From a virus (taxonomy: Duplodnaviria; Heunggongvirae; Uroviricota; Caudoviricetes): 64,000 nt of DNA. A model generated the notes under the pieces. The model searched no databases, had not been told where the DNA came from, and was given only the letters and a program-made list of their open reading frames with translations. Position 1 is the stretch's first letter. Each line of letters begins with the position of its first letter. Of this stretch, positions 6,774 through 63,943 are shown piece by piece. The DNA is taken from IMG/VR virus record IMGVR_UViG_3300017917_003727; one strand, written 5' to 3'. Both the position numbers and the translations under genes were made by a program.

Positions 6774-6774
6774 A

Positions 6775-7446: not shown

Positions 7447-7455
7447 TAATATAAT

Positions 7456-7791
7456 ATGTGGTTAACAATTTGGATTTTGATGGCTTATGGAATGAGTCAA
7501 ATTTTAGTTTACGGTTCGATATTCGAATCATTTAGGAATGGTATTCATAAATGGGGTAACGATGAATATGCACCATTTCAAGGAATAGGAAAATTTTTAT
7601 CAGGACTAATATCCTGTATGATGTGTACATCAACATGGGTTGGATTTTTTATGAGCTTAGTTCTTTTTTCTCCAACAGAGTATTGTTTTAATACTCACAT
7701 TGTAATTTCAACATTTTTTGACGGAATGTTGGGCTCAGGTTCGGTTTGGGCACTAAATGCAATAATCGAATGGTTTGAATCTAAAAAATAA
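7456..7791 (+). CDS. Small membrane protein
   Basis: Two to three hydrophobic helices; CMMCTSTWVGFF segment. Confidence 0.4.
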   Translation: MWLTIWILMAYGMSQILVYGSIFESFRNGIHKWGNDEYAPFQGIGKFLSGLISCMMCTSTWVGFFMSLVLFSPTEYCFNTHIVISTFFDGMLGSGSVWALNAIIEWFESKK

Positions 7792-7809
7792 TTTTATTAT
7801 AATTAAGTT

Positions 7810-8016
7810 ATGCCAGTTTCAAGAAATAGAAAAAATCACAAAAAGAAAGTTGCACAAAGGAACAAGCAACACAAACAACAAGTTAAAAAAGCTCAAGAGT
7901 TATACAATCAAAAAATAATTGAGCATTTAAAACAAATGCACGAAGAATACGTAAAGTCATCAGGTGATACCGAAAACAATGGACCTGTTCAATCCACCCC
8001 TAACACCGAACTATAA
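7810..8016 (+). CDS. Small highly basic protein
   Basis: 68 aa, rich in K/R/H/Q; possible nucleic-acid binding. Confidence 0.35.
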   Translation: MPVSRNRKNHKKKVAQRNKQHKQQVKKAQELYNQKIIEHLKQMHEEYVKSSGDTENNGPVQSTPNTEL

Positions 8017-8020
8017 GTAC

Positions 8021-10345
8021 ATGTCTCACGATTTAGATGTAAGTAAACTTGAAAATCCATACATACAAGTTGTTTGGGAAGACACGGCCGAAAATTTTAC
8101 ACAGGAGCGTGTTAAGAGTGTACGCAGTTACTTTTCAAAAAAATATAATTCAACAAATGTAAATGTTTTAACTAAAGTTAAGACTACAGAGGATGTTCAA
8201 CAAACAGTTGATGTTTCCGTGAACATTATGGACCGAAATTATCAGTTGGAATTACTTAAAGAGTTATTAAAACAAAAAGGTCAAGAAAAACTTCATGAAG
8301 ATGTAATTAAGTTGGACAATATTGTAGAATCCAAATTATCATCCGAAGACATCCAAGCATTCAAAAAATGGTACATAAAGAAGATTGAATTTAGTAATTT
8401 TTTGTCATATGGAGAAAATCAAGTTTTAGATTTTGAGAAGTGTAATGGAATTAGTGTGATTGAATCCAACCCACCAAACTTTGGCGGTAAGACAGTACTA
8501 ACGGTAGACCTACTTTTATTTCTATTCTTCAATACAACTACCAAAACATCTAAAGCTGAGGAAATATTTAATAGATTTTCAGACAAAGACAAAGTGTCTG
8601 TAAGAGGAGAAATTAGTATTGATGGTGACGACTACATTTTAGTTAGACAAATAACACGAAAATTAGCTAAGTCAGGTGAATGGAATGTAAAAACAGAACT
8701 TGATTTTTTTAAGAAACTACCAACAGGTGAGTTACAAAACTTCACTGGTGAGCAACGTAGAGAAACAGAGGCTTTTATTAAGAATTCCATAGGAAACATG
8801 GATGACTTTTTGATGACTATTTTAACTACGGCTTCTAATCTTGAAGATTTATTAGAAGCAAAACCAACTGCAAGAGGACAGGTTCTATCAAGATTTTTGG
8901 GATTAGAATTTCTTAAAAGAAAAGAAGAAATAGGTAAAGAACTATATTCCATGTTTAGTAAGTCTATGATTTCAAACGTTTATAATACAGAGACGTTAAA
9001 AGAAAATATTCAAGAACTTATTAATAAAATTGATACTCACAAACAAGAAAACCAAACACTTGAGGACAACATTAAAGAATCTTTGGAGAAATTAGAAAAA
9101 GGTAAAAAGTTCAAAGAGGATTTATTGGCACAAAAATACACGGATATTGACCATGAATTATTAGTTTTAAATCCTAATTCTGTTAATGGAGAGGTCGAAC
9201 TAATTCGTCGTAAAATAAATGAGTTGAATTCTAACATCCAACAGGTTAAGGTTGTTGAACCTAAAGAATATTATCATGAGGACCAACACGATAAAGTTAA
9301 GGATAATGTCAATGAGGTATATAAACAAATAGTACAAATTGATACTGAGATTTCATCAATCAATAAACTAAAGTCTGAAGTTTCTGGTGGAATCAAGTGT
9401 GAACATTGTGGTATTGAACTTATGAACGCGGCAATTACCAACGCCAAAATTGCCGAACTTGATGGATTTATTCAACAAAAAGACCAAAAAACTAAGTTAA
9501 TGCAGGATTTAACCAGCAAAGAACAAGGTTTTACACAACTTAAGAGAGACTTTGACGAGTATGAGAAAAATAAGTTAATTAGAGAAAAATATGAACTTAG
9601 TCTTGAATCCGAAAACTTAAAATTAGAAAAAAACTTAGATAAATTAAAAAGATATCAAGACGTTCAAGAAAAGATTCAAAAGAACAAACTAATTGAAGAA
9701 AAATTAATTAAAGCGAATCTTCGTATCGATGAAATTGAACGTGAAAAAAATCAATACACTAACAAAATTTCATCTAACAACACAATGATTGGTAATTTTG
9801 AAAAAGAAATTGAATCAAAGAATGAAAAGATTTTAAAGATTGCGGAAGAGTTTGAAAAGGAAAAGGTCTACAAAACCTACTTAGAAATATTTGGAAAGAA
9901 TGGAATCTCAAAAATGATTATGAAAACTATGATGCCATTGATTAATGACGAATTACAAAGACTACTTCAAGACAGTGCATTCTTTAAATTAGAAGTTAGA
10001 ATCAGTGATAAAAATGAGGTTGAATTTGTTATGATAGATAATTCTACAGGTATTGAAAAATTGATGTCGAGTGGTTCAGGGTTTGAAAGAACAATAGCCT
10101 CTTTAGCGTTAAGGGCGGTATTATCCAAGATTTGTTCTTTACCAAAGCCAAATATAATTGTATTCGATGAGGTTTTTGGTAAAGTGTCAAACGACAATTT
10201 GGATATGGTTGGTGAATTTTTCACAAAGATTAAGGAATACTTTGAAAAAATATTTGTAATTACACATAACCCACTAGTGTCCAATTGGGCTAACAATATA
10301 GTTAGAATTACAAAGGTAGATAATATATCAAGAGTAAGTCAATAA
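8021..10345 (+). CDS. SbcC/Rad50-like ATPase (T4 gp46 analogue)
   Basis: Degenerate Walker A (NFGGKT), long coiled coil with CEHCG zinc hook, Walker B IIVFDEV, H-loop ITHN; paired with the SbcD-like gene; start could be 7964 (in frame). Confidence 0.55.
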   Translation: MSHDLDVSKLENPYIQVVWEDTAENFTQERVKSVRSYFSKKYNSTNVNVLTKVKTTEDVQQTVDVSVNIMDRNYQLELLKELLKQKGQEKLHEDVIKLDNIVESKLSSEDIQAFKKWYIKKIEFSNFLSYGENQVLDFEKCNGISVIESNPPNFGGKTVLTVDLLLFLFFNTTTKTSKAEEIFNRFSDKDKVSVRGEISIDGDDYILVRQITRKLAKSGEWNVKTELDFFKKLPTGELQNFTGEQRRETEAFIKNSIGNMDDFLMTILTTASNLEDLLEAKPTARGQVLSRFLGLEFLKRKEEIGKELYSMFSKSMISNVYNTETLKENIQELINKIDTHKQENQTLEDNIKESLEKLEKGKKFKEDLLAQKYTDIDHELLVLNPNSVNGEVELIRRKINELNSNIQQVKVVEPKEYYHEDQHDKVKDNVNEVYKQIVQIDTEISSINKLKSEVSGGIKCEHCGIELMNAAITNAKIAELDGFIQQKDQKTKLMQDLTSKEQGFTQLKRDFDEYEKNKLIREKYELSLESENLKLEKNLDKLKRYQDVQEKIQKNKLIEEKLIKANLRIDEIEREKNQYTNKISSNNTMIGNFEKEIESKNEKILKIAEEFEKEKVYKTYLEIFGKNGISKMIMKTMMPLINDELQRLLQDSAFFKLEVRISDKNEVEFVMIDNSTGIEKLMSSGSGFERTIASLALRAVLSKICSLPKPNIIVFDEVFGKVSNDNLDMVGEFFTKIKEYFEKIFVITHNPLVSNWANNIVRITKVDNISRVSQ

Positions 10346-18966: not shown

Positions 18967-19585
18967 TAGACTGTCTGTAAAGTTTTTTCTTATCAAAACC
19001 ATTATCTTCTAATAATTTATATAGGTATTTTCTATGTACCGTATTTGAATCACTAACAAAGATAGCGTCAGCTCTTTTTTTATCAATCATATAATTTTGT
19101 AATACTGAAATGAATCTTTTAGATTCATTTTTGTTTTTTAACGAGAAAAGATTAACCAAATCATCATTCTGAACTACAACTTTGTTATTGACTGTAAAAA
19201 TGTTTTTTAAACCAGAGGTATTAACATACTTTAAACAAAACTCTTCAAAATCTATTCTTTTGTTTTGTTTCCAATCAAATATTTTTTCAGGTAAATTATA
19301 TTTTTGTAGTCTTATAATTTTATAATCTGAGTCCGTCATTTCTATTTTTACGTTTCTACCCATATCATCTTGTTTAAAAAGTACCATTTGAGTGTCATCC
19401 AAAACAGATATTATTGATATTTCATATGTAACTTTATTGGCGTTTTCAACAACTACTTCAAACTGTACCTTGTTAGATTCGTCAATACATTTGTTAAAAA
19501 ACAATTCCGCCTTATTTTTTCTTACAAAAGATTTGATGATTTTTTTTCTTTTCTTATTTTTAAACAATACAACCAAATAGTTCAT
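18944..19585 (-). CDS. Hypothetical protein
   Basis: 213-aa minus-strand ORF abutting the dnaJ start. Confidence 0.4.
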
Positions 19586-20576
19586 GTCTAAAGATTACTA
19601 TAAAATATTAGGAGTTAAAGAGAATGCCTCTCAAGAAGAAATAAAAAAGGCATATAGAAACCTATCTAAAAAATATCACCCAGACGTAAATCCTGAGGGT
19701 AAAGAGATGTTTCAAAACATTTCAGAAGCTTACGAGAATGTTGGAGACCCAAAAAAAAGAGAACAATATGATTTCAATAGAAATAATCCTTTTGCCAATA
19801 GCGGACCTGATTTAGGTGATTTATTTGACCTATTTAACAGAGGACAGAATCCTTTTTCACAAAGAAGAAGACAGAACGCTCCTGATAAAGTTGTTATTCT
19901 AAACTTAACACCATTTGAGTCATACTTAGGAGTTACAAAAGATTTGACATATCAAAGAAAAGAATCGTGTAAGATTTGTAATGGTCAAGGGGGTGAAAGG
20001 ATGACTTGTAACACTTGTCACGGTAGAGGTGTATTACAACAACAATTTGAATTTGGGGGTGCAATACACATTCAAAACACCAACTGCCCATCTTGTAGAG
20101 CCAACGGTTATGTTTTGACTCAAGTTTGTTATAATTGTTCGGGTCATGGCTCGAAAACTAATCTTCATAAAATTACCGTTGATATTCCTAAGTCAGTTGA
20201 TGATGGGGATTTTCTTAGAATACCAAATTCTGGAGATTTTACAACTAATGTTGGAATTGGAGATTTAGTCGTACAAATAAAATTAATTAACGATGGTGTT
20301 TATCAAAAAATAGGTCAAAATTTGTACATGAATTATAAATTGGCACCAGAGTCTTTCTTTATTAAGGATGATATAAAACTTGAACACCCTGATGGAACCT
20401 TAATGGTAAAGTTCCCACAAAACTTCAACACGGTAACACCAATAAGATTACGAGGTAAGGGATTTCAAATCGGTCAAAACTACGGTGATTTTATAATCAA
20501 GTTTGAAATAGACGGCTCACTGAGTACACTAAATGAAGAAAAAATTAGTAAAATTATAGAAACATTAAAAGAATGA
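19584..20576 (+). CDS. dnaJ: DnaJ-like co-chaperone (J domain plus CxxCxGxG zinc-finger domain)
   Basis: DYYKILGV ... YHPDVNP (HPD motif) J domain; CKICNGQG / CNTCHGRG / CPSCRANG / CYNCSGHG repeats. Confidence 0.75.
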
Positions 20577-33215: not shown

Positions 33216-34409
33216 ATGTTAACAAAATTAGAATACGTTTGGTTAGACGGTTATACACCTGAACCAAACCTCAGAAGTAAAGTAAAAGTATGTAGACTTG
33301 ACAGTTGGAGTGTTGAAAGATTGCCCGAATGGTCCTTTGATGGTTCATCAACGAAACAAGCTGAAGGACACTTTTCAGATTGTATTTTGAAACCTGTGAG
33401 AGTTTACGAAAATCCATTAAACAAAGGTACAATTCGTTCTTTGTTGGTACTATGTGAGGTAATGAATCCCGATGGTACGCCACACAGTACAAACACAAGA
33501 GCTAAAATTGGTGAAGAGCAAGAAGATTTGTGGTTTGGTTTTGAACAAGAATATACCATTATGAAAGATGGTAGACCATTGGGTTTCCCTGATAATGGAT
33601 ACCCTGAACCACAAGGTAAATACTATTGTGGCGTTGGTAATGGACAGGTTCATGGTCGTGAGTTTGTAGATAAACACATGGAGTATTGTATCAAAGCGAA
33701 CATTGATATTACAGGTACAAACGCTGAAGTTCTTTTAGGTCAGTGGGAATACCAAGTATTTTCAAAGGGTAAACTTAAAGCTGGAGACGACCTATGGGTG
33801 TCAAGATACATTCTTCAACAAATGTCAGAAGATTACGGATTTAAAATTGAGTTCCATCCAAAACCTGTTCAAGGTGATTGGAATGGTTCAGGACTACATT
33901 GTAACTTCTCAAACAATAGAATGAGAAATGAGGGTGGTGAAGAATACTTCAAAAACATATTTAGAGCTTTTGATGTTAGACATGAATTACACATTGAAAA
34001 TTATGGTTCAGATAATCATCTTCGTTTAACTGGTAAACATGAAACCCAATCAATCGATAAATTCAGTTGGGGGGTTTCAGACAGAGGTTCGTCAATAAGA
34101 GTTCCATTGTCAACAGCTAAAGAGTGGAAAGGATATGTCGAAGACCGCAGACCAGCATCAAATGGTGACCCATATAAAATCGTTAATGTAATTTCAAGTT
34201 CTATTGAGTTTGCAGAAGTATTAGACAAAACAAATTCAAACATTACTAACAACATAGATTTGTTAAATATCTCTAAAAAATACGGTACTTTAACTGATGA
34301 AGAACTTTTGGCGGAATTTGTAAAAGATACTGAATTTGATATGAGTGAAACCATGGCCCACACCAATGAAACAATAACTGAAATTAAGTTTAATCCTGAA
34401 AATAATTAA
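33216..34409 (+). CDS. Glutamine synthetase type II (eukaryote-like GlnII) homologue with C-terminal extension
   Basis: EYVWLDG...LRSKVKV N-terminus, GKYYCGVGNGQVHGREFVDKH, TGTNAEVLLGQWEYQV, FHPKPVQGDWNGSGLHCNFS blocks align to GS-II catalytic motifs. Confidence 0.7.
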   Translation: MLTKLEYVWLDGYTPEPNLRSKVKVCRLDSWSVERLPEWSFDGSSTKQAEGHFSDCILKPVRVYENPLNKGTIRSLLVLCEVMNPDGTPHSTNTRAKIGEEQEDLWFGFEQEYTIMKDGRPLGFPDNGYPEPQGKYYCGVGNGQVHGREFVDKHMEYCIKANIDITGTNAEVLLGQWEYQVFSKGKLKAGDDLWVSRYILQQMSEDYGFKIEFHPKPVQGDWNGSGLHCNFSNNRMRNEGGEEYFKNIFRAFDVRHELHIENYGSDNHLRLTGKHETQSIDKFSWGVSDRGSSIRVPLSTAKEWKGYVEDRRPASNGDPYKIVNVISSSIEFAEVLDKTNSNITNNIDLLNISKKYGTLTDEELLAEFVKDTEFDMSETMAHTNETITEIKFNPENN

Positions 34410-43255: not shown

Positions 43256-43876
43256 TTATTTATCTTCAGTGATATTGTAATAAAAACTATCCGTATCTTC
43301 TGTAACCCATCTGTCGGCAACATTTTCGATTGACGGTAATTTTGTATCCACTTTAAATTGTTTTAAATTTGTTGGTAATTGTTTGGTGACCCAATTAGAA
43401 TCTTTCCAAAAAATTCTGTTGTTTGGCATACACAAAAGATAACCATCATCACTTTTTAAAATGTGACCACATTTATAATCTGATGGTTCATCACTATATG
43501 GATTATCAAACCAATCAACTGTGAACATGTATTCACACCATACTTTATTACCATCCCTTAAAACTACTTGTGCTCTGTGATATTTTAAAAAATCATATGT
43601 AACTACATTTACATTTTCAGAAAAACAATCCCATAACTGTTTGTAAAAAAATGGGACATCATTTTTTGGTTCCTCAATATATATTTCCGATAAAGGAACT
43701 CTACTCCTTACCATTCCGTGGTCAGTCATTACATGAAATGTTAATATTTTACCTGTTATTGATTGTACTCCGAAACAATAAACATCATAAAATTCTGTGT
43801 CTTCCTCATTCTTTGTAAAGTAAGATTTTTTTACTTTGGCCTTGAATTGAGGTATATTTGAATTTAGTTTACTCAT
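43256..43876 (-). CDS. Hypothetical protein
   Basis: 206-aa minus-strand ORF. Confidence 0.4.
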   Translation of the reverse strand: MSKLNSNIPQFKAKVKKSYFTKNEEDTEFYDVYCFGVQSITGKILTFHVMTDHGMVRSRVPLSEIYIEEPKNDVPFFYKQLWDCFSENVNVVTYDFLKYHRAQVVLRDGNKVWCEYMFTVDWFDNPYSDEPSDYKCGHILKSDDGYLLCMPNNRIFWKDSNWVTKQLPTNLKQFKVDTKLPSIENVADRWVTEDTDSFYYNITEDK

Positions 43877-49928: not shown

Positions 49929-50453
49929 ATGAAAAGAATGACAATTGACAACACCCACTCAGAGATTGGGTTTAAAGTAAGACATCTTATGATTTCAACA
50001 GTTAAAGGTAATTTTAATACTTTTTCTGGTGGAATACAAGAAGACGGAAACGTATTTGTATCCATAAACGTTGGTTCAATCAATACAGGTAACGTAGACC
50101 GAGATAATCATCTTAAGTCTGCCGATTTCTTCAACTCTGAAGAATACCCTACAATTAATTTTGGAGGTAAGATGAGTGAAGACATGTCTACTGTTACAGG
50201 TGAGATTACAATCAAAGGGATAACCAAAGAAGTTACACTTAACACCGAATATAACGGTATGGGTGTTGACCCTTGGGGAAACACAAAGCACGGATGGGAA
50301 ATTACAGGTTCAATCAACCGTAATGATTTTGGTCTTACATGGAACGCTCCACTTGAAACAGGTGGTGTATTGTTAAGTGAAGAAGTTAAACTTAGCATTG
50401 ACGTTCAGATGGTAGAAGTTGTGGAAGAAATGGCTGTAGAATCAGCTGAATAA
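49929..50453 (+). CDS. YceI-family protein (moron-like insert)
   Basis: YceI-like blocks (FKVRHLMISTVKGNF, SINTGNVDRDNHLKSADFF, RNDFGLTWN); own promoter and terminators on both sides. Confidence 0.6.
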   Translation: MKRMTIDNTHSEIGFKVRHLMISTVKGNFNTFSGGIQEDGNVFVSINVGSINTGNVDRDNHLKSADFFNSEEYPTINFGGKMSEDMSTVTGEITIKGITKEVTLNTEYNGMGVDPWGNTKHGWEITGSINRNDFGLTWNAPLETGGVLLSEEVKLSIDVQMVEVVEEMAVESAE

Positions 50454-50477
50454 TCTTCACTCAATTAAAACATTAAA

Positions 50478-50504
50478 ACCCTCACTCAAAAGGTGGGGGT
50501 TTTT
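50478..50504 (+). terminator. Rho-independent terminator, family copy 2
   Basis: CCCTCAC-tcaaaa-GGTGGGGG then T5. Confidence 0.65.
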
Positions 50505-50516
50505 GTATTTATAGAC

Positions 50517-50708
50517 ATGAAGGAATTCATCAAATTTTTAATTATTTGGATTGCTAGTAACCTTTCAATACCCTTTTGGGTTATTGGACATGTTCATTTA
50601 ACCATGAATATTTATCAAGATATCTACGAGATTATTGCTTCTTTTGGTATGAATATTATTGTTGCTTTAGGTTTTTGGTTAGATTGGAAATCACAGAAAA
50701 AAACATAA
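50517..50708 (+). CDS. Small membrane protein
   Basis: Two hydrophobic helices; ATG 50517 in frame within ORF-track 50493. Confidence 0.35.
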   Translation: MKEFIKFLIIWIASNLSIPFWVIGHVHLTMNIYQDIYEIIASFGMNIIVALGFWLDWKSQKKT

Positions 50709-50775
50709 CATATTGTTAATATTTAATTAACACTATTACAAGATTTTTTTACTACTTATTGGTGGTAAAAAATTT

Positions 50776-53007
50776 ATGTCATTACTATACATAGCACTAT
50801 TCAACCTAATACCAGGTCCGATAGACACAGCAAAAGCTGAAACCATTGGTCAAGTTACCGTCAAGGCTTCGTCAAAAAAAGAAACAGTATCTTCTGTAAT
50901 TAATATTCAAAGAAAGAGTTTAACAATAATGGATGCAGTGTCATCCGAATCAATTAAAAAAACACCTGACAGAACAATTGGGGATGTTTTAAAAAGAGTT
51001 GGTGGTACATCAATACAAAATGATAAGTTTGTAGTTGTTAGGGGTCTTGCTGATAGATACAATTCGGTTTTAGTAAATGGTTCAATCATAGGTTCAACAG
51101 AACCTGATAGGAAATCATTTTCATTTGATTTAATACCATCAAATACAATTGATAATTTAGTTGTTTACAAAACCGCATCACCTGATTTACCTGGTGATTT
51201 TTCAGGTGGAGTAATAAAACTAACAACTAAAGTGGTAGACTCAAAATCAAAATCATTTGATTTTGGATTAGGATATGGAACGTTAAGTTCTTTTAGAAAT
51301 TCTTGGCAAATATCATCATATGTTTTACCTAATAATTTTTTAACTACCAAAGAATTTAGAGCATTATCAAGTGAGGCAAGACACGTAGAGTCACAAAAAA
51401 TAACACAATCTTTTAACCCAACACAAGGATTTAATATCCCTAATTTGACTCTTGTTTATAATCAGGGTAACATGACCAAAAAGTTTTCTTATTTGACAAA
51501 TTTTACATTAAGAAATTCACATAATATTACCACAACACAAAGAAAAGATTATATGTCGGGTAATGATTTAATGTATGATTATACCGACAAGATTTATACT
51601 AACACAACAAGTTTTGGTGGAATTGTAAATTTGAAGTATAAAAAATATGATTTTAAAAATAATATTAATTATTTGAATGAAAATTCTATTACAAATAGAA
51701 ACGGAATTAACTTTGATAATGAACAGTTAATTACAAGTAGTAGTTCTAATCACAATAGAAAGTTTATTTTGATGTCACAATTTGTGACCCCAAAGTACTC
51801 ATTTAATTATACATTGTTACACAGAAGTCAGCCAGATTATAGAGTTAATCCATTTGCCAAGAACATCACATCAAATGGTGATAGTTCGTTTGTATGGAGA
51901 GATTCTTACAGGTTTTGGAGTACCATGAACGAACACACTTTTGGTGGTTATTACAACGATACGATTGGTAAATTCAAATATGGTTTCTACGAACAATTAA
52001 AATACAGAAATTTTGGAGCGAGAGTTTTCAGATACGAACCAAATTACATTTTAAGTGAAATTACGAACAACACCGACAAGTATAATGCATATTCTAACTT
52101 ACTTTCAGGATATGGAATGTATTCTAAAACTTATAATAAGTTTACTACATCAGGTGGAATAAGAATTGAAAATCAAATATTCAAAGTTAATACATATGAT
52201 TTTAGTGGGAGACCACAACAAGTTAATAGAAATTATCTTGATGTATTACCATCATTAAACTTAATCTATGGTGTTAGGAATAATAAAAATATTAGAGCTT
52301 CAGTTAGTAGGACAGTTGCTAGACCTGAGTTTAGAGAAGTAAGTAATTTCTCTTTCTATGACTTTGTTAGAAACGCACAAGTAATTGGAAACCCAAAGTT
52401 ATTAAGAACACAAATAACTAATATTGATTTAAGATACGAGATATATCCATCATCAAAAGAAATTATCACATTCTCAACATTCTATAAAAAATTTACAAAT
52501 CCAATTGAACAAATTGTTGATAATGGTTCGGTACCAAGCAACTTAATTTTAACATTATCTAACCCTAAACAAGCAACAATATACGGTGGAGAATTGGAAA
52601 TAAGGAAATCAATTAATAACAATTTCACAATATATTCCAACTTGTCTTATTTTAAATCTGAAGTTAATATTCAAGGGAGAACAAGACAATTGCAAGGACA
52701 ATCACCATACATTATCAACACAGGATTGTATTATACAAAAGGAAAGTACTCTGTTAATATGTTCTATAATAGAATTGGAGAAAGAATATCGGCAGTAGGA
52801 TTTCAAGGGTATCCCGACATTTATGAAAATGCAAGGGATGTAATTGACTTGACAATTCAATACCAAACAAAGAAGATATCAATTAAATTTGGTGTGTCAG
52901 ACTTGTTAGGGCAATACTCAAAGTTTTATCAAAATAATCAAAATAGAACATTAATTAAAACAAATAACGAACAAACAATAAATCTAAATATAAATTACAA
53001 ATTATGA
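50776..53007 (+). CDS. TonB-dependent receptor-like outer-membrane protein (plug plus beta-barrel)
   Basis: Plug-domain blocks (VRGLADRYNSVLVNGS, RKSFSFDLIPS, VYKTASPDLPGDFSGGVIKLTTK); long Y/N/T-rich barrel-like remainder; atypical N- and C-termini. Confidence 0.55.
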   Translation: MSLLYIALFNLIPGPIDTAKAETIGQVTVKASSKKETVSSVINIQRKSLTIMDAVSSESIKKTPDRTIGDVLKRVGGTSIQNDKFVVVRGLADRYNSVLVNGSIIGSTEPDRKSFSFDLIPSNTIDNLVVYKTASPDLPGDFSGGVIKLTTKVVDSKSKSFDFGLGYGTLSSFRNSWQISSYVLPNNFLTTKEFRALSSEARHVESQKITQSFNPTQGFNIPNLTLVYNQGNMTKKFSYLTNFTLRNSHNITTTQRKDYMSGNDLMYDYTDKIYTNTTSFGGIVNLKYKKYDFKNNINYLNENSITNRNGINFDNEQLITSSSSNHNRKFILMSQFVTPKYSFNYTLLHRSQPDYRVNPFAKNITSNGDSSFVWRDSYRFWSTMNEHTFGGYYNDTIGKFKYGFYEQLKYRNFGARVFRYEPNYILSEITNNTDKYNAYSNLLSGYGMYSKTYNKFTTSGGIRIENQIFKVNTYDFSGRPQQVNRNYLDVLPSLNLIYGVRNNKNIRASVSRTVARPEFREVSNFSFYDFVRNAQVIGNPKLLRTQITNIDLRYEIYPSSKEIITFSTFYKKFTNPIEQIVDNGSVPSNLILTLSNPKQATIYGGELEIRKSINNNFTIYSNLSYFKSEVNIQGRTRQLQGQSPYIINTGLYYTKGKYSVNMFYNRIGERISAVGFQGYPDIYENARDVIDLTIQYQTKKISIKFGVSDLLGQYSKFYQNNQNRTLIKTNNEQTINLNINYKL

Positions 53008-54224
53008 AAAAATTGATTCCATTTATCATGGTATTATTATTGGGTTTGGGTTCATGTAAACCCGAAGAACCAATAGTTCCAACTGCAAACACTGAACTTG
53101 TTGGAACATTAACTGAAAACAAAACTTTAACTGCGGACAAAGTTTGGAGTCTTAAAGGTTATGTTTATGTACCTGAAGGTATTACATTAACTATTGAAGC
53201 GGGAACCAAAATTGTTAGTGACGTTACTGAAAAAGGTGCATTGTGTATTGAAAGAGGTGCTAAAATTTATGCTAATGGAACTGCGGACCAACCAATTATT
53301 TTTACATCAGGACAGTCTTCACCAAAACCTGGTGATTGGGGTGGATTGATAATTTTAGGAAACGCTCCAACTAATAAACCAAATCCAACAATTGAAGGTG
53401 GTGTAGGTAGACCCTATGGTGGTGTTGATGAAAGTGACAACAGTGGTGTGTTAAAGTATGTAAGAGTTGAATACGCTGGTATCGCGGCATTTCCTGGTTC
53501 TGAAATTAACGCATTCACATTTGGTGGTGTAGGAAAAGGAACTGTAGTTGATTACTGTGAATCTTACTACGCTAATGATGACGCATTTGAATTCTTTGGT
53601 GGTAATGTAAACTGTTCACATTTAGTGGCTGTTGGAACTGCTGATGATGATTATGATTTTGACTTTGGATATACAGGTACAATAAAATTTGCAATATCAA
53701 AAAGAGACCCATTATTTGTTGATATGGCAGATGCGGGTAATGGTATTGAGTGTGATAATGATGGTACTGGTTCCGTTGCAATTCCAATAACAAAACCTAA
53801 TTTACAAAATTTCACTCTTATTGGTCCTATAGAGTCAACATCTTTATCAAATCACAACTTAGCAATGAGATGGAGAAGAGGAACTGCATTTAATGTTCAA
53901 TATTCTATTTTCTATGGATACATGAAAGGTGGTTTTAGTATTGAATCTGACATCACCGCAGGGTATTTTAATACAGGTATGAGTACAATGTTCAATAATT
54001 ACATATCATCTGTGGATACCGTAAATACAATAAAAACAAGTTCAACATTATTAACAAAAGAAAACATGTTAGCTCTTTGTAGTAAACAAGGAACAATAAT
54101 AACAAGCTCACAAGTTAAACCTTTTGATAATAATTTCCAAACAATTTCAAGTGTGGTAAATGGACAGTGGGGAGCAATCCCTTCGGGTTCCTCAATTTGG
54201 ACTTTGGGTTGGACAAAATTTTAA
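53004..54224 (+). CDS. Lipoprotein, beta-helix-like
   Basis: Signal plus lipobox (LLLGLGSC); G/T/N-rich repetitive beta-strand composition. Confidence 0.45.
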   Translation: MKKLIPFIMVLLLGLGSCKPEEPIVPTANTELVGTLTENKTLTADKVWSLKGYVYVPEGITLTIEAGTKIVSDVTEKGALCIERGAKIYANGTADQPIIFTSGQSSPKPGDWGGLIILGNAPTNKPNPTIEGGVGRPYGGVDESDNSGVLKYVRVEYAGIAAFPGSEINAFTFGGVGKGTVVDYCESYYANDDAFEFFGGNVNCSHLVAVGTADDDYDFDFGYTGTIKFAISKRDPLFVDMADAGNGIECDNDGTGSVAIPITKPNLQNFTLIGPIESTSLSNHNLAMRWRRGTAFNVQYSIFYGYMKGGFSIESDITAGYFNTGMSTMFNNYISSVDTVNTIKTSSTLLTKENMLALCSKQGTIITSSQVKPFDNNFQTISSVVNGQWGAIPSGSSIWTLGWTKF

Positions 54225-54342
54225 AAAAAAATATTTTTGTATTGATACTTTATAATTGTCAAATATATTTATTTCTGATGAAAAAATTGAGACGACATAA
54301 TTATCGAACACAAATAAACAATATTAATATATTATCATTTAA

Positions 54343-54372
54343 ATCCCTTCTCTAATGAAGGGATTTTTTTTG
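54343..54372 (+). terminator. Rho-independent terminator
   Basis: ATCCCTTC-tctaat-GAAGGGAT then T8. Confidence 0.6.
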
Positions 54373-54383: not shown

Positions 54384-55214
54384 ATGAAAAACACAGAAAT
54401 ATATAACGAACTAGTACAGAAGATGAGAGAATTCTTCTTAAAGAGAAATTTCAAAGAAGTTCCTACACAAAGTAGACTATCAATCTTGGCGGCTTGTGAA
54501 AACCCACATTCAGTAAAAACATTTGAATATGGTGGATTACAATGGCCATTACCACAAACAGGCCAAATGTGGTTGGAACATGAACTATTAAAAAACCCTG
54601 AATGGGACGGAGTATTTTGTATTTCAACTTCTTACAGGGAAGAAAAAAATCCAATTGAAGGAAGACACGAAATGATATTCCCAATGTTTGAATTCGAATC
54701 AAAAGGAACTATGAGAGAACTTCACCAACTTGAAGTTAGATTACTTGAACATTTAGGTTTTGAAACACCAGCAATTTGTAAATACGATGATGTTTGTCAA
54801 GAGTATGGTGGTGTTGAAATACTTGAAAACGAACATGAACAAAGAATGTGGGAAGAAAAAGGACCTGTAGTTTCATTACAAAACTTTCCATTAAGAACAA
54901 ACCCATTTTGGAATATGAAACATGGTGGAAATAACATTTATAATAAAATTGATGTTATTCTTTACGGTCAAGAAACAATTGGTTCTGCAGAGAGAAGTTG
55001 TGATGTTGAAGAAATGAAAAACAATTTTTACACAATTGAAAATGGTGCTTACTGTGCAAAGTTGTTTGAATTGTTTGGAAAAGAAAGAGTAGAGAAAGAA
55101 CTTGAAGAATTCTTATCGCTTAATTTCTTCCCGAGATTTGGTGGAGGTATTGGAATGACAAGAATGGCTCGGGCTTACGAATTGATGAAACAAGAACAAC
55201 TACAGATGGTGTAA
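54384..55214 (+). CDS. Class II aminoacyl-tRNA-synthetase-like ligase (AsnA/aspartate-ammonia-ligase-like or EpmA-like)
   Basis: Motif 2 YREEKNPIEGRHEMIFPMFEFE and motif 3 GGGIGMTRM of the class II core; no anticodon-binding domain. Confidence 0.5.
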   Translation: MKNTEIYNELVQKMREFFLKRNFKEVPTQSRLSILAACENPHSVKTFEYGGLQWPLPQTGQMWLEHELLKNPEWDGVFCISTSYREEKNPIEGRHEMIFPMFEFESKGTMRELHQLEVRLLEHLGFETPAICKYDDVCQEYGGVEILENEHEQRMWEEKGPVVSLQNFPLRTNPFWNMKHGGNNIYNKIDVILYGQETIGSAERSCDVEEMKNNFYTIENGAYCAKLFELFGKERVEKELEEFLSLNFFPRFGGGIGMTRMARAYELMKQEQLQMV

Positions 55215-56133: not shown

Positions 56134-56508
56134 ATGAAATTTGCACTTATAGCACACGACGGAAAAAAGGCGGACATGGTTGCCTTTGTAATGAAAAGAT
56201 TAGAATTCTTCAACAGGGAAGATGTTGAAATATATGCTACAGGAACAACAGGTAAAAGAATTGTTCATGCTGGTGTTGAAAAGGTTGTAACCCTAAACTC
56301 AGGACCAATGGGTGGTGATGCGGAAATTGGAGCCATGGTTGCCAAAGGTGAATTGGAAGGAGTAATATTCTTCAGGGACCCACTTGATAAACACCCACAT
56401 GAACCCGATGTTCAAATGCTAATGAGACTATGTGATGTCCACGATGTACCACTAGCAACAAACTATAAAAGTGGACATATTATGGTTAAGTATTACTCAG
56501 AAAAATAA
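56134..56508 (+). CDS. mgsA: Methylglyoxal synthase
   Basis: FALIAHDGKK, YATGTTG, SGPMGGD, VIFFRDPL...PHEPDV blocks align closely to bacterial MgsA. Confidence 0.7.
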   Translation: MKFALIAHDGKKADMVAFVMKRLEFFNREDVEIYATGTTGKRIVHAGVEKVVTLNSGPMGGDAEIGAMVAKGELEGVIFFRDPLDKHPHEPDVQMLMRLCDVHDVPLATNYKSGHIMVKYYSEK

Positions 56509-56922: not shown

Positions 56923-57198
56923 ATGATTAAACTATTTAAAGAAAAATTTTTACAGTTGGATTTTGGTATTCAGATGATAATAGTTACACTAACTATTTTA
57001 ATATCAAATCAACTATTGTCCTTCACAACTAAGTTGATGAATTATTCCGACACGTTCGCATTTAATACTGGTCTCATTCTAACCTTTACTTTATTTGTAT
57101 TCCAAGCTTTATTCATATTTTTGGGTATAAAGTCAGTGATAAATTACATAAGAAAAACAAAACAAAATAATATAAATAACAATGAGCAATCTAACTAA
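56923..57198 (+). CDS. Small membrane protein
   Basis: ATG 56923 (ORF-track 56908 is a TTG); three hydrophobic helices. Confidence 0.4.
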   Translation: MIKLFKEKFLQLDFGIQMIIVTLTILISNQLLSFTTKLMNYSDTFAFNTGLILTFTLFVFQALFIFLGIKSVINYIRKTKQNNINNNEQSN

Positions 57199-58048
57199 AT
57201 TCTTGCTTGGACTATCAGTTGTAGTCCTTATGATTTTCAGTTTCACGGGATGTGAGCGTATCGACGCTGGTCACGTTGGAGTAAAAGTAAACCTTTATGG
57301 TAACGGAAAAGGCGTTGATGATGTGACAGAAGTTACTGGTTGGGTATTTTATAACCCAATTTCAACAAAAATTGTTGAGTTTCCAACCTATGTTCAACAC
57401 AAAGAATACAAAGCGATTATGGAAGACGGAAAAGTTGTATCTGACGAATCTTTTGTAATCAACTCAAAAGACGGTTCCGAGTTTCATGTTTCACCACTTC
57501 TTAACTATTCAGTTAAACGTGAAAAAGTTCCTTACATTTTCAACAAATACCGTGTAACACTCGGACAAATTGAAGAAGGATTTCTTAAAACTGCAGTATA
57601 CGATGCGTTTCGTGTTGTTGCTAACTCATATACTGCCGATGAATTGATATCTAATCGTGAATTATTTGAAATAAAAGTAAGAAAAAACCTTGAGGAACAC
57701 CTTGCACCCGAGGGATTTGTCTTGGCACAATTTACTTCTAATCTTGTTTATCCCACTACGTTTAAAAATGCGATTGAAGCTAAGAATAACGCAGTTCAAA
57801 AAGCTTTGACCGCTGAGAATGAAGTTAAAACTGCTGAGGCTCAGGCAAGGATTAAAGTGGCAACCGCAGAAGGTGAAGCGAAGGCGATGTTAACATCCGC
57901 AAAGGCTGAAGCTGAATCTAACAGGTTGAGACAACAAACATTGACACCACTTCTTCTACAACAAATGTGGATTGAAAAATGGAATGGTGGTCTTCCATCC
58001 ACGATGCTGGGTCAAGGACAAAATTTAATGTTCGGACTTAATAAGTAA
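57182..58048 (+). CDS. SPFH/band-7 (prohibitin/HflK-C-like) lipoprotein
   Basis: Lipobox FSFTGC; SPFH core with C-terminal Ala/Glu-rich coiled coil. Confidence 0.6.
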   Translation: MSNLTKFLLGLSVVVLMIFSFTGCERIDAGHVGVKVNLYGNGKGVDDVTEVTGWVFYNPISTKIVEFPTYVQHKEYKAIMEDGKVVSDESFVINSKDGSEFHVSPLLNYSVKREKVPYIFNKYRVTLGQIEEGFLKTAVYDAFRVVANSYTADELISNRELFEIKVRKNLEEHLAPEGFVLAQFTSNLVYPTTFKNAIEAKNNAVQKALTAENEVKTAEAQARIKVATAEGEAKAMLTSAKAEAESNRLRQQTLTPLLLQQMWIEKWNGGLPSTMLGQGQNLMFGLNK

Positions 58049-59511: not shown

Positions 59512-59637
59512 ATGTGGGAGTTAATAATCATAAACAAAGACGACAAAGGTTATTTAGTTCAGGCACCAAATGGTGATACACATTGGATGTCAAAACAGGA
59601 CTATCAAAAGTATTTAGAAAAAATCAATAAAAATTAA
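59512..59637 (+). CDS. Small hypothetical protein (41 aa)
   Basis: ATG 59512 within ORF-track 59392; the upstream part overlaps the previous CDS. Confidence 0.25.
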
Positions 59638-60608
59638 TGTACGGCAATTCTAATCTTGATAAAGATTTTGTGGTTGATGATGACCTAATTAAACTTGCCG
59701 AGTTCGAAGCAAGAATCGCTGCGGGTGATAAGATTGAGCCAAAAGATTGGATGCCGAAAGAATATAGAAAACAACTTATCAGGATGATTGAACAACACGC
59801 TCATTCTGAAATTATTGGTTCTTTACCTGAAGGGACTTGGATTACAAGAGCACCAGGTTTTAGAAGAAAATTAGCATTGATGGCTAAAGTTCAGGACGAA
59901 GTCGGACATGCACAATTATTATATTCCGCAGCTGAAACATTGGGTAAAAGAAGAGAAGATATGGTTAATGATTTAATCAATGGCAAATCAAAATATTCAA
60001 ATGTCTTCAACTATCCAGCAAAGACTTGGGCTGATACCGCAATTATAGGTTGGTTAATTGATGCTGCGGCAATAGTTAATCAATTAGCAAACTCAAAAGG
60101 TTCATATGGTCCTTATTGTAGGGCTTTGGAAAGGATATGTTATGAGGAAAGTTTTCACCTAAAACAAGGTCATAGTAATTCTGTATACTTGGCAACAGGA
60201 ACAGAAAAACAAAGAGAGATGGTTCAAGATGCACTTAATCGTTGGTGGAAACCTGTGATACATTTCTTTGGACCACCTGATTCACAGTCAGTTCATTCAG
60301 AAAAGTTAATAAAATGGAAAGTTAAGATGATGACTAACGACCAAATGAGATTTCAATTCTTTGATATGTATGTCCCAAAGATTAGAGAATTAGGATTAGT
60401 AATCCCTGATGAAAAATTAAAAAGAAATGAAGATGGTACTTGGGATTACTCAGACCCTGATTGGAACGAATTCAAAGAAGTAATCAAAGGAAACGGACCA
60501 TGTAATAAAGAAAGATTGGCGGTTAGAAGGATGGCAGAAGAAAGAGGTAGATGGGTTAGAAAAGCTTTACTAAATAAAGATACTAATTATGTTACACCAC
60601 TAGCATGA
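59637..60608 (+). CDS. PaaA-like ferritin-fold di-iron protein (phenylacetyl-CoA epoxidase subunit A family)
   Basis: [25 protein letters not shown]...[13 protein letters not shown] di-iron carboxylate motifs. Confidence 0.55.
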
Positions 60609-62050: not shown

Positions 62051-63943
62051 ATGAAAAAAAACTTATTATTATTTTTGACTTTTGCAATGTCCATGCTTGG
62101 ATATTCGCAGACGTGTCCCACACCAACCACGTCGGGAGTTCACATCACGTTAGATTCTACCTATAAAATCGGGACTTATAGGTCGGGTAAAACGAGTGTC
62201 GGATTGTGTTTTTACAATAGCACATCTGAAAAAATCACAGCAGCACAATACAGAGTATTTTACGACAAATCTGCATTTGCTGGCGTAGACACTATAAAAA
62301 CAAAAAACTCATCATTCTCACAGTATCTTCAGTATGTAGATAATCCATCAGGTGGATTTGTAACTATTACAATTACTTACACTGGTACAAATTCGAGTTT
62401 CAATATTCCAAACGGAGCTTTGTTTGAAATTGTATTCAAACATACTTCAGCACTTGCAACAACTTATTTCTCACCAACTGATATGACATTTAATGGTGGT
62501 TCATCTTTTAGTCAAACAGCAACCAACCAAGCGGGTAACGACTACACTTTGACACTAACAAATTTCGGTGGTAAATTCGAGAAACAAAAAATGTCTTACA
62601 AGGGTAAATTTGTTAACGTTCAAGGCTCAGCAGCTAAAAACCTAACAGTATCTTTGGAAAAGAAATTGAAATCAGGTGGAAGTTGGAGTTATGTTCAAAC
62701 ATCGGTTACAAACACATCAGGTAGATTTAATTTTACAGATGTTGAAATCGATACAACTGCTTGGAATGTAAGAATTGCGGTTAAAGGTGATACTATGGGT
62801 GTAGGTTCTATTGTGTCTGTATCAGATGCTCAAAGAATCAACCAATACGTATTAGGAACTCAAACACCAACAGGATTTGATTTCTACACTTCAGATGCTA
62901 ACGGAGATGATAAGATTACAATATCAGACGTTTATAGTGTTTACGGTAGAGTTGGTGGAAGATTCACAGCATTCCCTAATTCAGTTCAAGACGTATTGTT
63001 CTTCACTGAATCTGAATACAACACAATTAATAATTCATCTACAAACTATACTTCAACAATTCAAGGTGTAACTAATTTTACATTTGATATTATTGCAGGT
63101 CAACCTGACTCAGTAACATATTATGTTGTATGTCCTGGTGATGCTAATGGAACAGGTTATCACATGGCTCGTATGATTCCTATTGAAATTGTAAATCCAA
63201 ATAATGCTCACAAACACATTATTGATGTTACAACTCACTACGACGACGAGACACTTAAGACTATTGAAGTTAACTATCCTAAATTAGGTGTTGATGCTGA
63301 AGACGTAGTTTCTATTCCTGTTAAAGTTAAAACAAACGGTATTGAATTAGGTTCATTACAATTGAGTATGAAATACGATTCTACCCTGTTAACATTTAAA
63401 GGTGTGAAAAATGAAAGTAAAACTTCTTATTGGATTTCTTTTGTTAACCCATCTGAAGGTGTTGTTGAGTGGGGTGGTTACGACCCTACAAATAACAAAC
63501 ACTTAATGAAAGATGGTGAGATGTTTTTTACTTTAGAATTCACCGCAAAGAAACCACAAAATGATTGGGGTAAAAGTCCTTTATATGTGACAAGAAAATT
63601 TGCTGGTAATGCATCCGCAACTGATTTAGTTATTACACCAACTGATGGAATTATTCAAGTTTTCAGAATGTCAGGACCAACCAACTTCAAAGATTTGGGA
63701 TTAAGTCCAAACCCTTCAGATAAAACAATGTACTTTACATTTAAAGTATATCAAGATGGTAAAACATCAATTAGTTTATACGACTTGATTGGTAAAGAAC
63801 AAGTAAAAGTAGTTGAAGGTTATTACCCTGTTGGAATCTACACAGAACCTAAAGACATCTCAATGTTATCACCAGGTATGTACTTGGCAATTTTGAGAAC
63901 TGAAGAGAAAGTGGTAGTAAAAAAAGCAATTAAAAACAATTAA
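62051..63943 (+). CDS. Secreted protein with type IX secretion system C-terminal sorting domain
   Basis: N-terminal signal peptide; C-terminal ~80 aa matches the Por/T9SS CTD pattern (KTSISLYDLIGKEQ...GMYLAILRTEEKVVVKKAIK). Confidence 0.6.
   Translation: MKKNLLLFLTFAMSMLGYSQTCPTPTTSGVHITLDSTYKIGTYRSGKTSVGLCFYNSTSEKITAAQYRVFYDKSAFAGVDTIKTKNSSFSQYLQYVDNPSGGFVTITITYTGTNSSFNIPNGALFEIVFKHTSALATTYFSPTDMTFNGGSSFSQTATNQAGNDYTLTLTNFGGKFEKQKMSYKGKFVNVQGSAAKNLTVSLEKKLKSGGSWSYVQTSVTNTSGRFNFTDVEIDTTAWNVRIAVKGDTMGVGSIVSVSDAQRINQYVLGTQTPTGFDFYTSDANGDDKITISDVYSVYGRVGGRFTAFPNSVQDVLFFTESEYNTINNSSTNYTSTIQGVTNFTFDIIAGQPDSVTYYVVCPGDANGTGYHMARMIPIEIVNPNNAHKHIIDVTTHYDDETLKTIEVNYPKLGVDAEDVVSIPVKVKTNGIELGSLQLSMKYDSTLLTFKGVKNESKTSYWISFVNPSEGVVEWGGYDPTNNKHLMKDGEMFFTLEFTAKKPQNDWGKSPLYVTRKFAGNASATDLVITPTDGIIQVFRMSGPTNFKDLGLSPNPSDKTMYFTFKVYQDGKTSISLYDLIGKEQVKVVEGYYPVGIYTEPKDISMLSPGMYLAILRTEEKVVVKKAIKNN

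Follow-up and report, generated by a model that had tools for sequence, protein, structure and literature searches.

What a TonB-dependent-receptor-like gene and an adjoining lipoprotein gene are doing in phage DNA is the question raised by a 64,000-nt stretch (the window) of the IMG/VR record IMGVR_UViG_3300017917_003727, assigned to the Caudoviricetes. The question has three parts: what the two proteins are, whether the DNA that carries them is viral, and what a phage could gain from them. The best explanation as a whole, held here with a probability of about 0.5, is a captured TonB-dependent transporter (TBDT)–lid cassette that serves phosphorus uptake.

The gene pair and its products

Both open reading frames lie where the preliminary description had placed them, on the plus strand, and encode proteins of 743 and 406 amino acids. 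They overlap by 4 bp and are, with high probability, a translationally coupled cassette of an outer-membrane transporter (TBDR) and a beta-helix lipoprotein 'lid'. The features of the locus are as follows.

50475..50503, plus strand: terminator-like hairpin (12-bp stem, then T run), 3' of the YceI gene; upstream limit of the cassette transcription unit
50493..50708, plus strand: 71-aa hydrophobic ORF in the leader region, a doubtful gene
50776..53007, plus strand: TBDR, 743 aa, a short form lacking the N-terminal CarboxypepD_reg domain (Pfam, NCBIfam, model with Foldseek, comparison with bacterial orthologues)
50776..50838, plus strand: signal-peptide-like N-terminus, residues 1–21, MSLLYIALFNLIPGPIDTAKA, with uncharged n-region and AKA motif
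50839..50868, plus strand: TonB-box-like segment ETIGQVTVKA, residues 22–31, with conserved Val27
50911..51210, plus strand: Plug domain, residues 46–145 (Pfam PF07715; phmmer match to the Cir plug)
51247..53004, plus strand: beta-barrel, residues ~158–743, of ~22 long antiparallel strands, ending ...NINYKL (Pfam, AlphaFold model, Foldseek)
53004..54224, plus strand: predicted surface lipoprotein 'lid', 406 aa, Beta_helix_4 family (PF28492); start codon overlaps the TBDR stop (ATGA)
53004..53057, plus strand: lipobox-bearing lipoprotein signal peptide, MKKLIPFIMVLLLGLGS-C18, with KPEE (K plus acidic residues, resembling a surface-export motif) directly after it
53085..54038, plus strand: right-handed parallel beta-helix core of the lid, residues ~28–345, with the invariant acidic motifs GDWGG, NDDAFEFFGG, ADDDYDFDFGY and DAGNGIECDNDG
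54341..54366, plus strand: terminator-like hairpin (10-bp stem, then T run), 3' of the lid gene; downstream limit of the unit

Four terminator-like sites were found against 1.7 expected, and two of them (50475 and 54341) occupy the intergenic gaps that flank the cassette. Considered as part of the cassette, the 71-aa ORF was dropped, and whether it is a gene at all is doubtful, since tblastn against all fetched loci returned no homologue in any related locus.

The first product is a TonB-dependent transporter. Its plug domain, already recognised in the preliminary description, scores above the Pfam cutoff (E = 5e-11; 43.5 bits against 23.9), and two barrel families likewise exceed theirs (TonB_dep_Rec_b-barrel PF00593, 9e-21; OMP_b-brl_3 PF14905, 2e-23). 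The remaining ~590 residues had been proposed to form a barrel of the 22-strand type, and the AlphaFold model bears this out with its long strands past residue 158 (barrel pLDDT 75–85; plug part of low confidence); when the model was compared with the PDB by Foldseek, 234 chains were retrieved at E ≤ 0.001, the best 50 of which are all TonB-dependent transporters (TM 0.48–0.65). The NCBIfam scan gave TIGR01782 and NF053590 only, the best match being TIGR01782 (TonB-Xanth-Caul; 3e-62, 211 bits, below its cutoff of 310), a family that the bacterial orthologue in locus L103 also reaches with 221 bits.

The termini of the TBDR had been remarked on as odd, the N-terminus for want of a canonical signal peptide and the C-terminus for ending in ...NYKL. 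The N-terminal segment, which is followed by E, indeed has no charged n-region, but it possesses a hydrophobic core and the AKA motif and aligns with the canonical signal peptides that relatives have there, for example MKKLLLLLSLMISITGFSQ; the closest in-frame stop upstream of the start is at 50728. The Y-K-L end fits an aromatic-x-hydrophobic ending, and because the C-terminal residue is Leu in all 12 homologues read back (47–89% identical), the ending is a trait of the clade. Kept across the clade, the two features do not indicate repurposing, and a defective TBDR was rejected on the same ground. Immediately after the signal-peptide-like segment, ETIGQVTVKA resembles an E/D-T-x-x-V-x-A TonB box, in which Val27 hardly varies across 34 phage-clade TBDRs and, like the plug core, is invariant in comparison with bacterial orthologues. 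Relative to those orthologues, the N-terminal domain is gone from the phage TBDR, as are many insertions that are probably surface loops.

The second product is a lipoprotein of the beta-helix type, as first described: it carries a lipobox, and its model is all-beta, a right-handed parallel helix of the pectin-lyase/beta-helix fold, while searches of solved structures by sequence (single sequence and profile) gave no match. A lipobox is found in 62 of 67 viral lids and is followed by a C-x-K-[D/E] consensus, represented in the window by C-K-P-E-E. This arrangement resembles the surface-export signal of K plus acidic residues after the lipidated Cys, reportedly defined by Lauber et al. in 2016, and would suit display at the cell surface. 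The acidic motifs of the lid are conserved with bacterial proteins.

Phage context, conservation and selection

The cassette lies among phage-type genes, and the claim that it is phage-borne is upheld with high probability. Window genes include those for SbcCD, primase, RuvC, exonuclease, a sigma factor and RNA ligase, with phage-type genes and PHROG-only families on both flanks of the cassette, and IMG/VR locus L006 is syntenic with the window. Across viral loci (scan of 81 cluster representatives), cassette neighbours comprise DNA polymerase, DnaB, RNR, ThyA, endolysins and a tape-measure protein, the matches in related cassette-bearing IMG/VR loci reaching 9.5e-68 and 1e-18 for endolysins and 2e-11 for the tape-measure protein; large ORFs beside the cassette in L004 and L087 gave weak tail-lysin/endolysin matches only in a PHROG scan.

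The preliminary description had allowed that the region might be host chromosome, for instance a prophage–host junction, and a broader form of this alternative would make it host chromosome, plasmid, another mobile element or misclassed bacterial DNA, and the cassette an ordinary bacterial pair. Several observations lean that way: within the 64-kb window, no gene for capsid, portal, terminase or tail was recognised; two large window ORFans had no tblastn homologue among 50,697 deposited phage records, and 24 kb of the window had no megablast match to phages; ParB-like and PcfJ-like genes are present; and some of the small 'Bacteriophage sp.' gut records carrying the pair are probably bacterial fragments. 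Against these stand the phage-type flanks, a uniform composition across the window with no tRNA or junction signal, close syntenic relatives in IMG/VR, where at least 144 stretches encode a lid relative, and the endolysin, tape-measure, DNA polymerase and RNR genes near the cassette in related contigs. A non-phage origin of the region is accordingly very improbable, and both a host–prophage junction and host chromosome were rejected.

The viral copies also differ from every chromosomal copy, in gene lengths and in the 4-bp overlap, which gene calls place in phage copies. In a tree they form one clade, apart from all chromosomal copies and with Chitinophagales loci as sisters, although the loci were picked by best match, which biases the viral clade towards looking like one group. 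Where a locus extends at least 1 kb upstream of the lid gene, a same-strand TBDR gene directly precedes the lid; this is so for all such IMG/VR loci and for 63 of the 64 such bacterial genome loci. Phage-to-phage dN/dS values of 0.04–0.16 in both genes indicate purifying selection. A repurposed structural protein, one of the roles first suggested, is very unlikely because the TonB-box-like motif, plug, lipobox and surface-export-like motif have been retained under this selection.

Proposed phosphorus uptake and its alternatives

The bacterial cassette is linked to genes of the Pho type. Genes for PHO4/PiT (2e-90) and PhoU_div/DUF47 (8e-25) lie divergently upstream of it, with a PiT neighbour in 13 and a DUF47 neighbour in 11 of 52 bacterial loci. 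PhoB-like and PhoR/PnpS-like genes adjoin it in several orders (PhoB-like regulators in 14 loci from five orders), these being best matches, yet below NCBIfam equivalog cutoffs. A PiT, DUF47 or two-component neighbour is nevertheless seen in only 27 of 80 bacterial loci over the short flanks examined, and a search for PiT, DUF47 and PhoBR found none in the window or, for any phage locus, in the ~10 kb flanking the cassette on each side. The phosphate link is drawn, for bacteria too, from regulation and gene neighbourhood; since the bacterial relatives adjoin phosphate-starvation genes, phosphorus scavenging is the use proposed for the phage copies. That the cassette acquires phosphorus for the infected host has close to even odds.

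Substrate, timing of expression and benefit to the phage are what we infer in the following scheme. The big Bacteroidota phages of a large group would share an ancestor that took the cassette from a Chitinophagales-like host and kept it, streamlined, without the PhoBR/PiT regulatory neighbours. During infection, the Sec, Lol, BAM and surface-export machinery of the host would place the TBDR and lid in the outer membrane, where host TonB-ExbBD would power transport. The likeliest benefit would be extra uptake of phosphorus nutrients, independent of the Pho regulon, feeding the replication of a very large phage genome; nutrient acquisition had been listed among the roles at the outset and is retained here as the proposed one. 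More tentative is a longer history in which a jumbo-phage clade of Bacteroidota has long kept, under strong selection, a streamlined, regulator-free phosphate-starvation importer, and at least one megaphage lineage (LR745206) acquired a cassette of this kind separately.

Uptake of a substrate other than phosphorus, be it a carbohydrate, metal chelate or cofactor, is unlikely but carries appreciable weight. The pectin-lyase/beta-helix fold of the lid is typical of glycan-active proteins, a megaphage TBDR has been read as a carbohydrate importer, 'SusC' (PMC9723777), and 53 of the 80 bacterial loci show no Pho-type neighbour in the flanks examined. However, the NCBIfam scan of the TBDR found no SusC/RagA (TIGR04056-type) signature and the Pfam scan of the lid no SusD match; the 14 neighbour clusters that recur most, 10 of them profiled, showed no glycoside hydrolase or lyase gene; PiT, PhoU-like and PhoBR-like genes are the informative neighbours that recur; and the two relatives studied by experiment react specifically to phosphate depletion, one of them, Fjoh_0545/46, not responding to Fe or N limitation.

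Phages often use TBDTs as receptors, and some encode lipoproteins that block them; the T5 lipoprotein Llp, which blocks FhuA, offers a parallel. A TBDT with trimmed loops and its lid might on this pattern replace or mask a host orthologue used as receptor by the same or competing phages, resulting in superinfection exclusion or receptor remodelling; the loss of the N-terminal domain and of many probable surface loops from the phage TBDR means that its exposed surface would change. A decoy or mask would, however, need no TonB box, plug core or lid acidic motifs, all of which are conserved with bacterial proteins under strong purifying selection; the coupled transporter and lid are retained as a pair in every phage locus, and no integrase or lysogeny module was recognised beside the cassette. 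This role is therefore improbable, and phosphorus uptake remains the preferred reading.

If that reading is true, the cassette would be the first case in which a TonB-dependent nutrient transporter of the outer membrane, with its lid, is shown to act as a viral auxiliary gene set, and these phages would be changing how abundant freshwater and marine heterotrophs capture phosphorus at their cell surface. Viral phosphate-acquisition genes, a textbook case of metabolic reprogramming, would thereby gain an outer-membrane example from heterotrophic Bacteroidota. The transporter–lid family spans hundreds of bacterial genera, and the compact, strongly conserved phage versions, with no N-terminal domain and shorter insertions, delimit its minimal functional core; the minimal phage pair would also offer a practical way to the substrate of the ElpS/FII family. 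Were the function confirmed, the abundance of cassette-bearing phages could mark phosphorus stress in lakes and coastal waters.

Relation to known transporter–lid systems

The pair had been likened to SusC/SusD, and the working logic of that comparison stands: in SusC/SusD and PusC/PusD, too, a 22-strand TonB barrel is capped by a surface lipoprotein encoded directly downstream, and a CarboxypepD_reg N-terminal domain is common to SusC and the long phage-type forms. Membership of the SusC/SusD family was rejected, with neither family matched and the lid fold wrong, SusD having an all-alpha TPR-like fold whereas the lid here is a beta-helix.

By architecture, fold and context, the cassette probably belongs instead to the kind represented by BT4055/56, Fjoh_0545/46 and ElpS, in which a TBDT is accompanied by a lid of pectin-lyase fold. 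The window cassette shows the family traits, a lipoprotein of that fold on the same strand beside a non-SusC TBDT; the lid is placed with Fjoh_0546, BT4056 and ElpS by its fold, the domain architecture and the gene order. In Flavobacterium johnsoniae, Fjoh_0545 (PF07715, PF13715, PF14905) and the pectin-lyase-fold lipoprotein Fjoh_0546 (hypothetical lipoprotein 'FII') lie in the phoBR operon ('PUSIV') and are strongly induced by phosphate depletion only, not by Fe or N limitation (Lidbury et al. 2021, PMC8115612). The same exact domain set is found in the long phage forms and bacterial orthologues, the window copy lacking PF13715; the lipoprotein partner follows directly downstream, as in the phage pair; and the order phoR-phoB-TBDT-lipoprotein recurs in Chryseobacterium loci L111 and L112. 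The window copy differs in that it is carried by a phage and has neither phoBR nor PiT nor OprP beside it; CarboxypepD_reg is missing from its TBDR, whose insertions are trimmed (743 against ~930 aa), the lid is ~60 aa shorter and the two genes overlap by 4 bp.

In Bacteroides thetaiotaomicron, BT4055 is a non-SusC TBDT and BT4056 a putative alternate 'lid', which shares 40% identity with Fjoh_0546, is related to ElpS, is paired with a TBDT across 621 genera and is placed by AlphaFold-Multimer on the outer face of the BT4055 barrel (Price, Deutschbauer and Arkin 2023, bioRxiv 10.1101/2023.03.17.533168). Like the phage pair, it joins a TBDT to an adjoining same-strand lipoprotein of the pectin-lyase superfamily, a proximity very widely conserved in Bacteroidota; that study covers bacterial genomes only and reports no phage copies. 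ElpS of Caulobacter crescentus is a surface-anchored lipoprotein made on phosphate starvation (Le Blastier et al. 2010, PMC2996285); it is encoded beside the TBDR CCNA_00170 and is homologous to BT4056 according to Price et al., but it is alphaproteobacterial, is released by a T2SS-dependent protease and is tied to alkaline phosphatase activity, so that its relation to the window lid is indirect and distant.

[quoted passage not shown] 2021, PMC9723777). The LR745206 megaphage carries an adjoining TBDR (26% identity) and Beta_helix_4 lid (37%), like the window pair, but there the gene order is lid first, then TBDR, and the lid does not group with the window's viral clade, so that a separate capture is indicated, probably a second and independent one; the published guess of a SusC carbohydrate importer would be corrected accordingly.

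The closest viral analogy in purpose comes from cyanophages, which carry the phosphate-acquisition auxiliary genes pstS, phoA and phoH; to our knowledge, viral genes of this type are known almost only from that group. The proposed logic is the same, part of the host phosphate-starvation response being carried for phosphorus supply; the cyanophage genes, however, encode a periplasmic binding protein and enzymes and act in Cyanobacteria, whereas the cassette described here would bring an outer-membrane TBDT and its lid to Bacteroidota.

The cassette in the window

Reading of the open reading frames confirmed both gene positions in the preliminary description, and the cassette, comprising a TonB-dependent receptor (TBDR) and a beta-helix surface lipoprotein of the Beta_helix_4 family (the lid), is bounded by two terminator-like hairpins:

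50475–50503: terminator-like hairpin, upstream boundary of the cassette unit
50493–50708 (+): hydrophobic ORF, 71 aa, spanning the gap from the upstream hairpin to the TBDR start
50776–53007 (+): TBDR, 743 aa, Pfam Plug and barrel domains
53004–54224 (+): lid, 406 aa, its start codon overlapping the TBDR stop codon (ATGA)
54341–54366: terminator-like hairpin, downstream boundary of the cassette unit

The 71-aa ORF is probably not a gene, since homologues are absent from all 169 fetched loci.

The TBDR Plug domain (residues 46–145, E 5e-11) passes the Pfam cutoff, as do TonB_dep_Rec_b-barrel (9e-21) and OMP_b-brl_3 (2e-23), whereas the top NCBIfam match, the TonB-Xanth-Caul subfamily, falls below its cutoff (211 bits against 310); the same NCBIfam scan returned no SusC/RagA match. 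An AlphaFold model built with 34 homologues (mean pLDDT 68; barrel 75–85, plug <50) contains ~22 long antiparallel strands beyond residue 158. Solved chains matching it at E ≤ 0.001 number 234, and the best 50 of them are all TonB-dependent transporters, including the lid-bearing XusA–XusB and BtuB3G3 complexes; the region proposed earlier as a barrel therefore does model as one.

ATG 50776 reads as the first conventional TBDR start, because the closest upstream in-frame stop lies at 50728. The supposed lack of a canonical signal peptide holds for the n-region, which is uncharged in the window's subclade, but the N-terminus is hydrophobic and closes with AKA|E, and more distant TBDRs of the clade open with canonical signal peptides (MKKLLLLLSLMISITGFSQ, MRAFLLFLLLPLSTFSQ); targeting to the outer membrane is predicted from sequence. 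The C-terminus is non-aromatic, as described, but hardly aberrant: Leu ends 12 of 12 homologues at 47–89% identity (…NYKL, NLNL, NYNL, NLTL), and the terminal Y-K-L would fit an aromatic-x-hydrophobic C-terminal signal. A TonB-box-like segment, ETIGQVTVKA, lies N-terminal to the plug, with Val27 kept in phage and bacterial members. A lipobox was identified in 62 of 67 viral lids, followed by C-x-K-[D/E], which resembles the Bacteroidota lipoprotein surface-export signal reportedly described by Lauber et al. in 2016. Between phage pairs, dN/dS is 0.04–0.16 for TBDR and lid genes alike.

The 168 fetched loci were scanned for pairing of the two genes. Where 1 kb or more of sequence precedes the lid gene, a homologue of the window's TBDR lies directly 5′ of it and in the same orientation in all IMG/VR loci and in 63 of the 64 bacterial genome loci. 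Bacterial cassette loci include those of cultured Sediminibacterium, Chitinophaga, Chryseobacterium, Pedobacter, Adhaeribacter, Flavihumibacter, Niabella, Hymenobacter and Rufibacter. Clustered at 50% identity, the lid family is very large, with 8,158 representatives, and its domain serves in large multi-repeat surface proteins too, as giant relatives of 1,000–4,900 aa carrying 2–14 domain copies are common among the matches P0241–P0354.

Bacterial relatives and phosphate starvation

Neighbouring ORFs were clustered from 79 bacterial genome loci (L090–L168), with a Spirosomataceae MAG contig (L089) bringing the counts to 80 loci. Recurrent neighbours of the bacterial cassette are a phosphate transporter, PHO4/PiT (Pfam 2e-90), and PhoU_div/DUF47 (8e-25), placed divergently and directly upstream of the TBDR in many Chitinophagaceae loci, and a two-component pair whose top NCBIfam matches, which score below the equivalog cutoffs, are PhoB (2e-67) and PnpS/PhoR. 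Of the 52 bacterial loci whose upstream sequence reaches 2.5 kb or more, 13 have PiT; at least one of PiT, DUF47 and the two-component genes is present in 27 of 80. Fourteen loci, belonging to Chitinophagales, Flavobacteriales, Bacteroidales, Cytophagales and Sphingobacteriales, have the PhoB-like regulator adjoining the cassette; relative to the regulator of one of these, L103, identity over the 13 others is 34–72%, and 51–72% in nine.

Gene order in Chryseobacterium, phoR-phoB-TBDT-lid (TBDT, TonB-dependent transporter), is that of Fjoh_0543–0546 in Flavobacterium johnsoniae (Lidbury et al., PMC8115612), where Fjoh_0545 (PF07715, PF13715, PF14905) and Fjoh_0546 ("FII", a pectin-lyase-fold lipoprotein) belong to the genes with the strongest induction on phosphate depletion, both proteins being abundant in the exoproteome. 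BT4056 of Bacteroides thetaiotaomicron, of the pectin-lyase superfamily, shares 40% identity with Fjoh_0546; its neighbourhood with a TBDT is retained across 621 genera, and Caulobacter ElpS (CCNA_00169) is a distant relative (Price, Deutschbauer, Arkin; bioRxiv 10.1101/2023.03.17.533168). ElpS is itself a surface lipoprotein made on phosphate starvation, encoded beside a TBDR (PMC2996285).

Recurrent ORFs just 3′ of the bacterial lid (loci L094, L100, L101, L103, L105 and L107 among others) were also observed. In 13 bacterial loci the lid is directly followed by a small lipoprotein of ~163 aa without a Pfam match, and a ~288-aa protein recurs in 14 bacterial loci; both may be extra components of the bacterial system.

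Proposed role in the phage and alternative readings

Judged by how the bacterial relatives are regulated and which genes surround them, a phosphorus source is the most likely ligand, with a probability of roughly 0.45–0.5. The coupled pair would be expressed from the phage's own transcription unit and installed in the outer membrane by host machinery; the lid, whose invariant acidic motifs hint at binding through metal, would capture ligand at the cell surface, host TonB-ExbBD would power import via the barrel, and the phosphorus supplied could support replication of a large phage genome, as with cyanophage pstS and phoA. Substrate, expression timing and benefit to the phage are here what we infer. 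Within roughly 10 kb on each side, PiT, DUF47 and PhoBR are absent beside the cassette in every phage locus examined.

Import of a nutrient other than phosphorus is unlikely; the one published mention of a TBDR in the megaphages Mar_Mega_1 and LR745206 names it "SusC" and suggests carbohydrate uptake (PMC9723777). Superinfection exclusion or receptor remodelling, for which the trimmed TBDR loops would be favourable, appears decidedly improbable, since conservation of the TonB box, of the plug and of motifs in the lid counts against it. That the window is not phage at all is more doubtful again. The weakest point of its phage assignment is the lack of any recognised virion gene within the 64 kb, together with two large ORFans whose homologues are absent from 50,697 deposited phage records. 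This is countered by at least 144 IMG/VR stretches encoding lid relatives; by the IMG/VR relative L006, in which RNA ligase, DUF6847, TBDR, lid, AsnA-like gene and methylglyoxal synthase follow in the window's order; by further cassette contigs of 75–330 kb, in which ORFans and phage-type genes predominate; and by PHROG matches among 81 clusters of genes neighbouring the cassette in viral loci, scanned as one batch, which include DNA polymerase, DnaB helicase, primase, RNR and thymidylate synthase, and also endolysins (best E 9.5e-68), a tape-measure protein and GroEL.

The window itself is of even composition (G+C ~31%), is coded mainly from one strand and has no tRNA in its 64 kb. It encodes phage-type replication and recombination genes (SbcC, SbcD, primase, RuvC-like resolvase, exonuclease), a sigma factor, DNA methyltransferases, ParB, an RNA ligase (phrog_968, 2e-87) and members of the phage-only families phrog_29758 and phrog_14336. 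Dense host-like genes look like an auxiliary-gene island:

33216–34409: glutamine-synthetase-like protein
43256–43876: ferredoxin-type protein (phrog_3704)
49929–50453: YceI (3.8e-43)
57182–58048: SPFH/Band 7 protein
59637–60608: PaaA/PaaC-like protein (6e-81)

Several other genes were identified in the window. A DnaJ-like protein (19584–20576, +; phrog_14336, 1.6e-62) has homologues, 30% identical, in Prevotella Lak megaphages and megaphage LR756502. The protein at 54384–55214 (+) has a class II aminoacyl-tRNA-synthetase fold and is AsnA/EpmA-like (Pfam tRNA-synt_2 1.6e-11; phrog_29758, 1.8e-95), with 78–86% identity in several cassette-bearing phage contigs. Methylglyoxal synthase (56134–56508, +; NF003559, 2.8e-44, above the NCBIfam equivalog cutoff) lies 1.9 kb 3′ of the cassette and is kept with it in L006 at 89% identity; as an enzyme that liberates phosphate from DHAP, it may have a part in the same phosphorus economy. 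The last 75 residues of a 630-aa ORFan (62051–63943, +) weakly match Por_Secre_tail, the T9SS C-terminal sorting domain (E 1.4e-5, just under the Pfam cutoff), a match that points to a Bacteroidota host; a phage protein exported through the type IX secretion system of its host would, to our knowledge, be unusual.

Comparison with known systems

In a neighbour-joining tree, 67 of 67 distinct viral lids, the window's included, form one clade, a picture favoured by the picking of both viral and bacterial sets as best hits; its closest sisters are Chitinophagales loci. The sole 'bacterial' lid inside it, on the 17-kb contig L089 (JBILRJ010000032.1), comes with overlapping reading frames and a TBDR score that groups with viral copies, and the contig is probably phage mis-binned into the MAG.

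A TBDR also adjoins a Beta_helix_4 lid in the published 634-kb megaphage LR745206, in the fetched locus LR745206.1 72000–87000 (L169):

8000–9295 (−): lid
5455–8103 (−): TBDR

There the lid precedes the TBDR, in contrast to the window, and the TBDR ends …SYNF, with a C-terminal Phe, and retains CarboxypepD_reg. This lid falls outside the viral clade and is equidistant from viral-clade and bacterial lids (medians 190 and 191 bits), so that the cassette is probably a second, independent capture of the same kind.

The bacterial system and its phosphate-starvation induction are already published. New within the searchable literature appear to be the coupling of a phage TBDR as a cassette with an ElpS/FII-type lid, the wide distribution and strong selection of that cassette in a clade of large Bacteroidota phages, its streamlined phage version, and the Pho-type neighbourhoods of its nearest bacterial relatives. 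The window cassette is probably of the Fjoh_0545/46–BT4055/56–ElpS kind, judged by fold and domain architecture, by the partner and by the order of the genes. Compared with bacterial copies, phage lids are shorter (~400 against ~459 aa), as are phage TBDRs (~756 or 827 against ~910–937 aa), that of the window being without the N-terminal CarboxypepD_reg domain and many insertions of its bacterial orthologues, and the genes of phage cassettes overlap by 4 bp, whereas a short spacer separates the reading frames in most bacterial loci.
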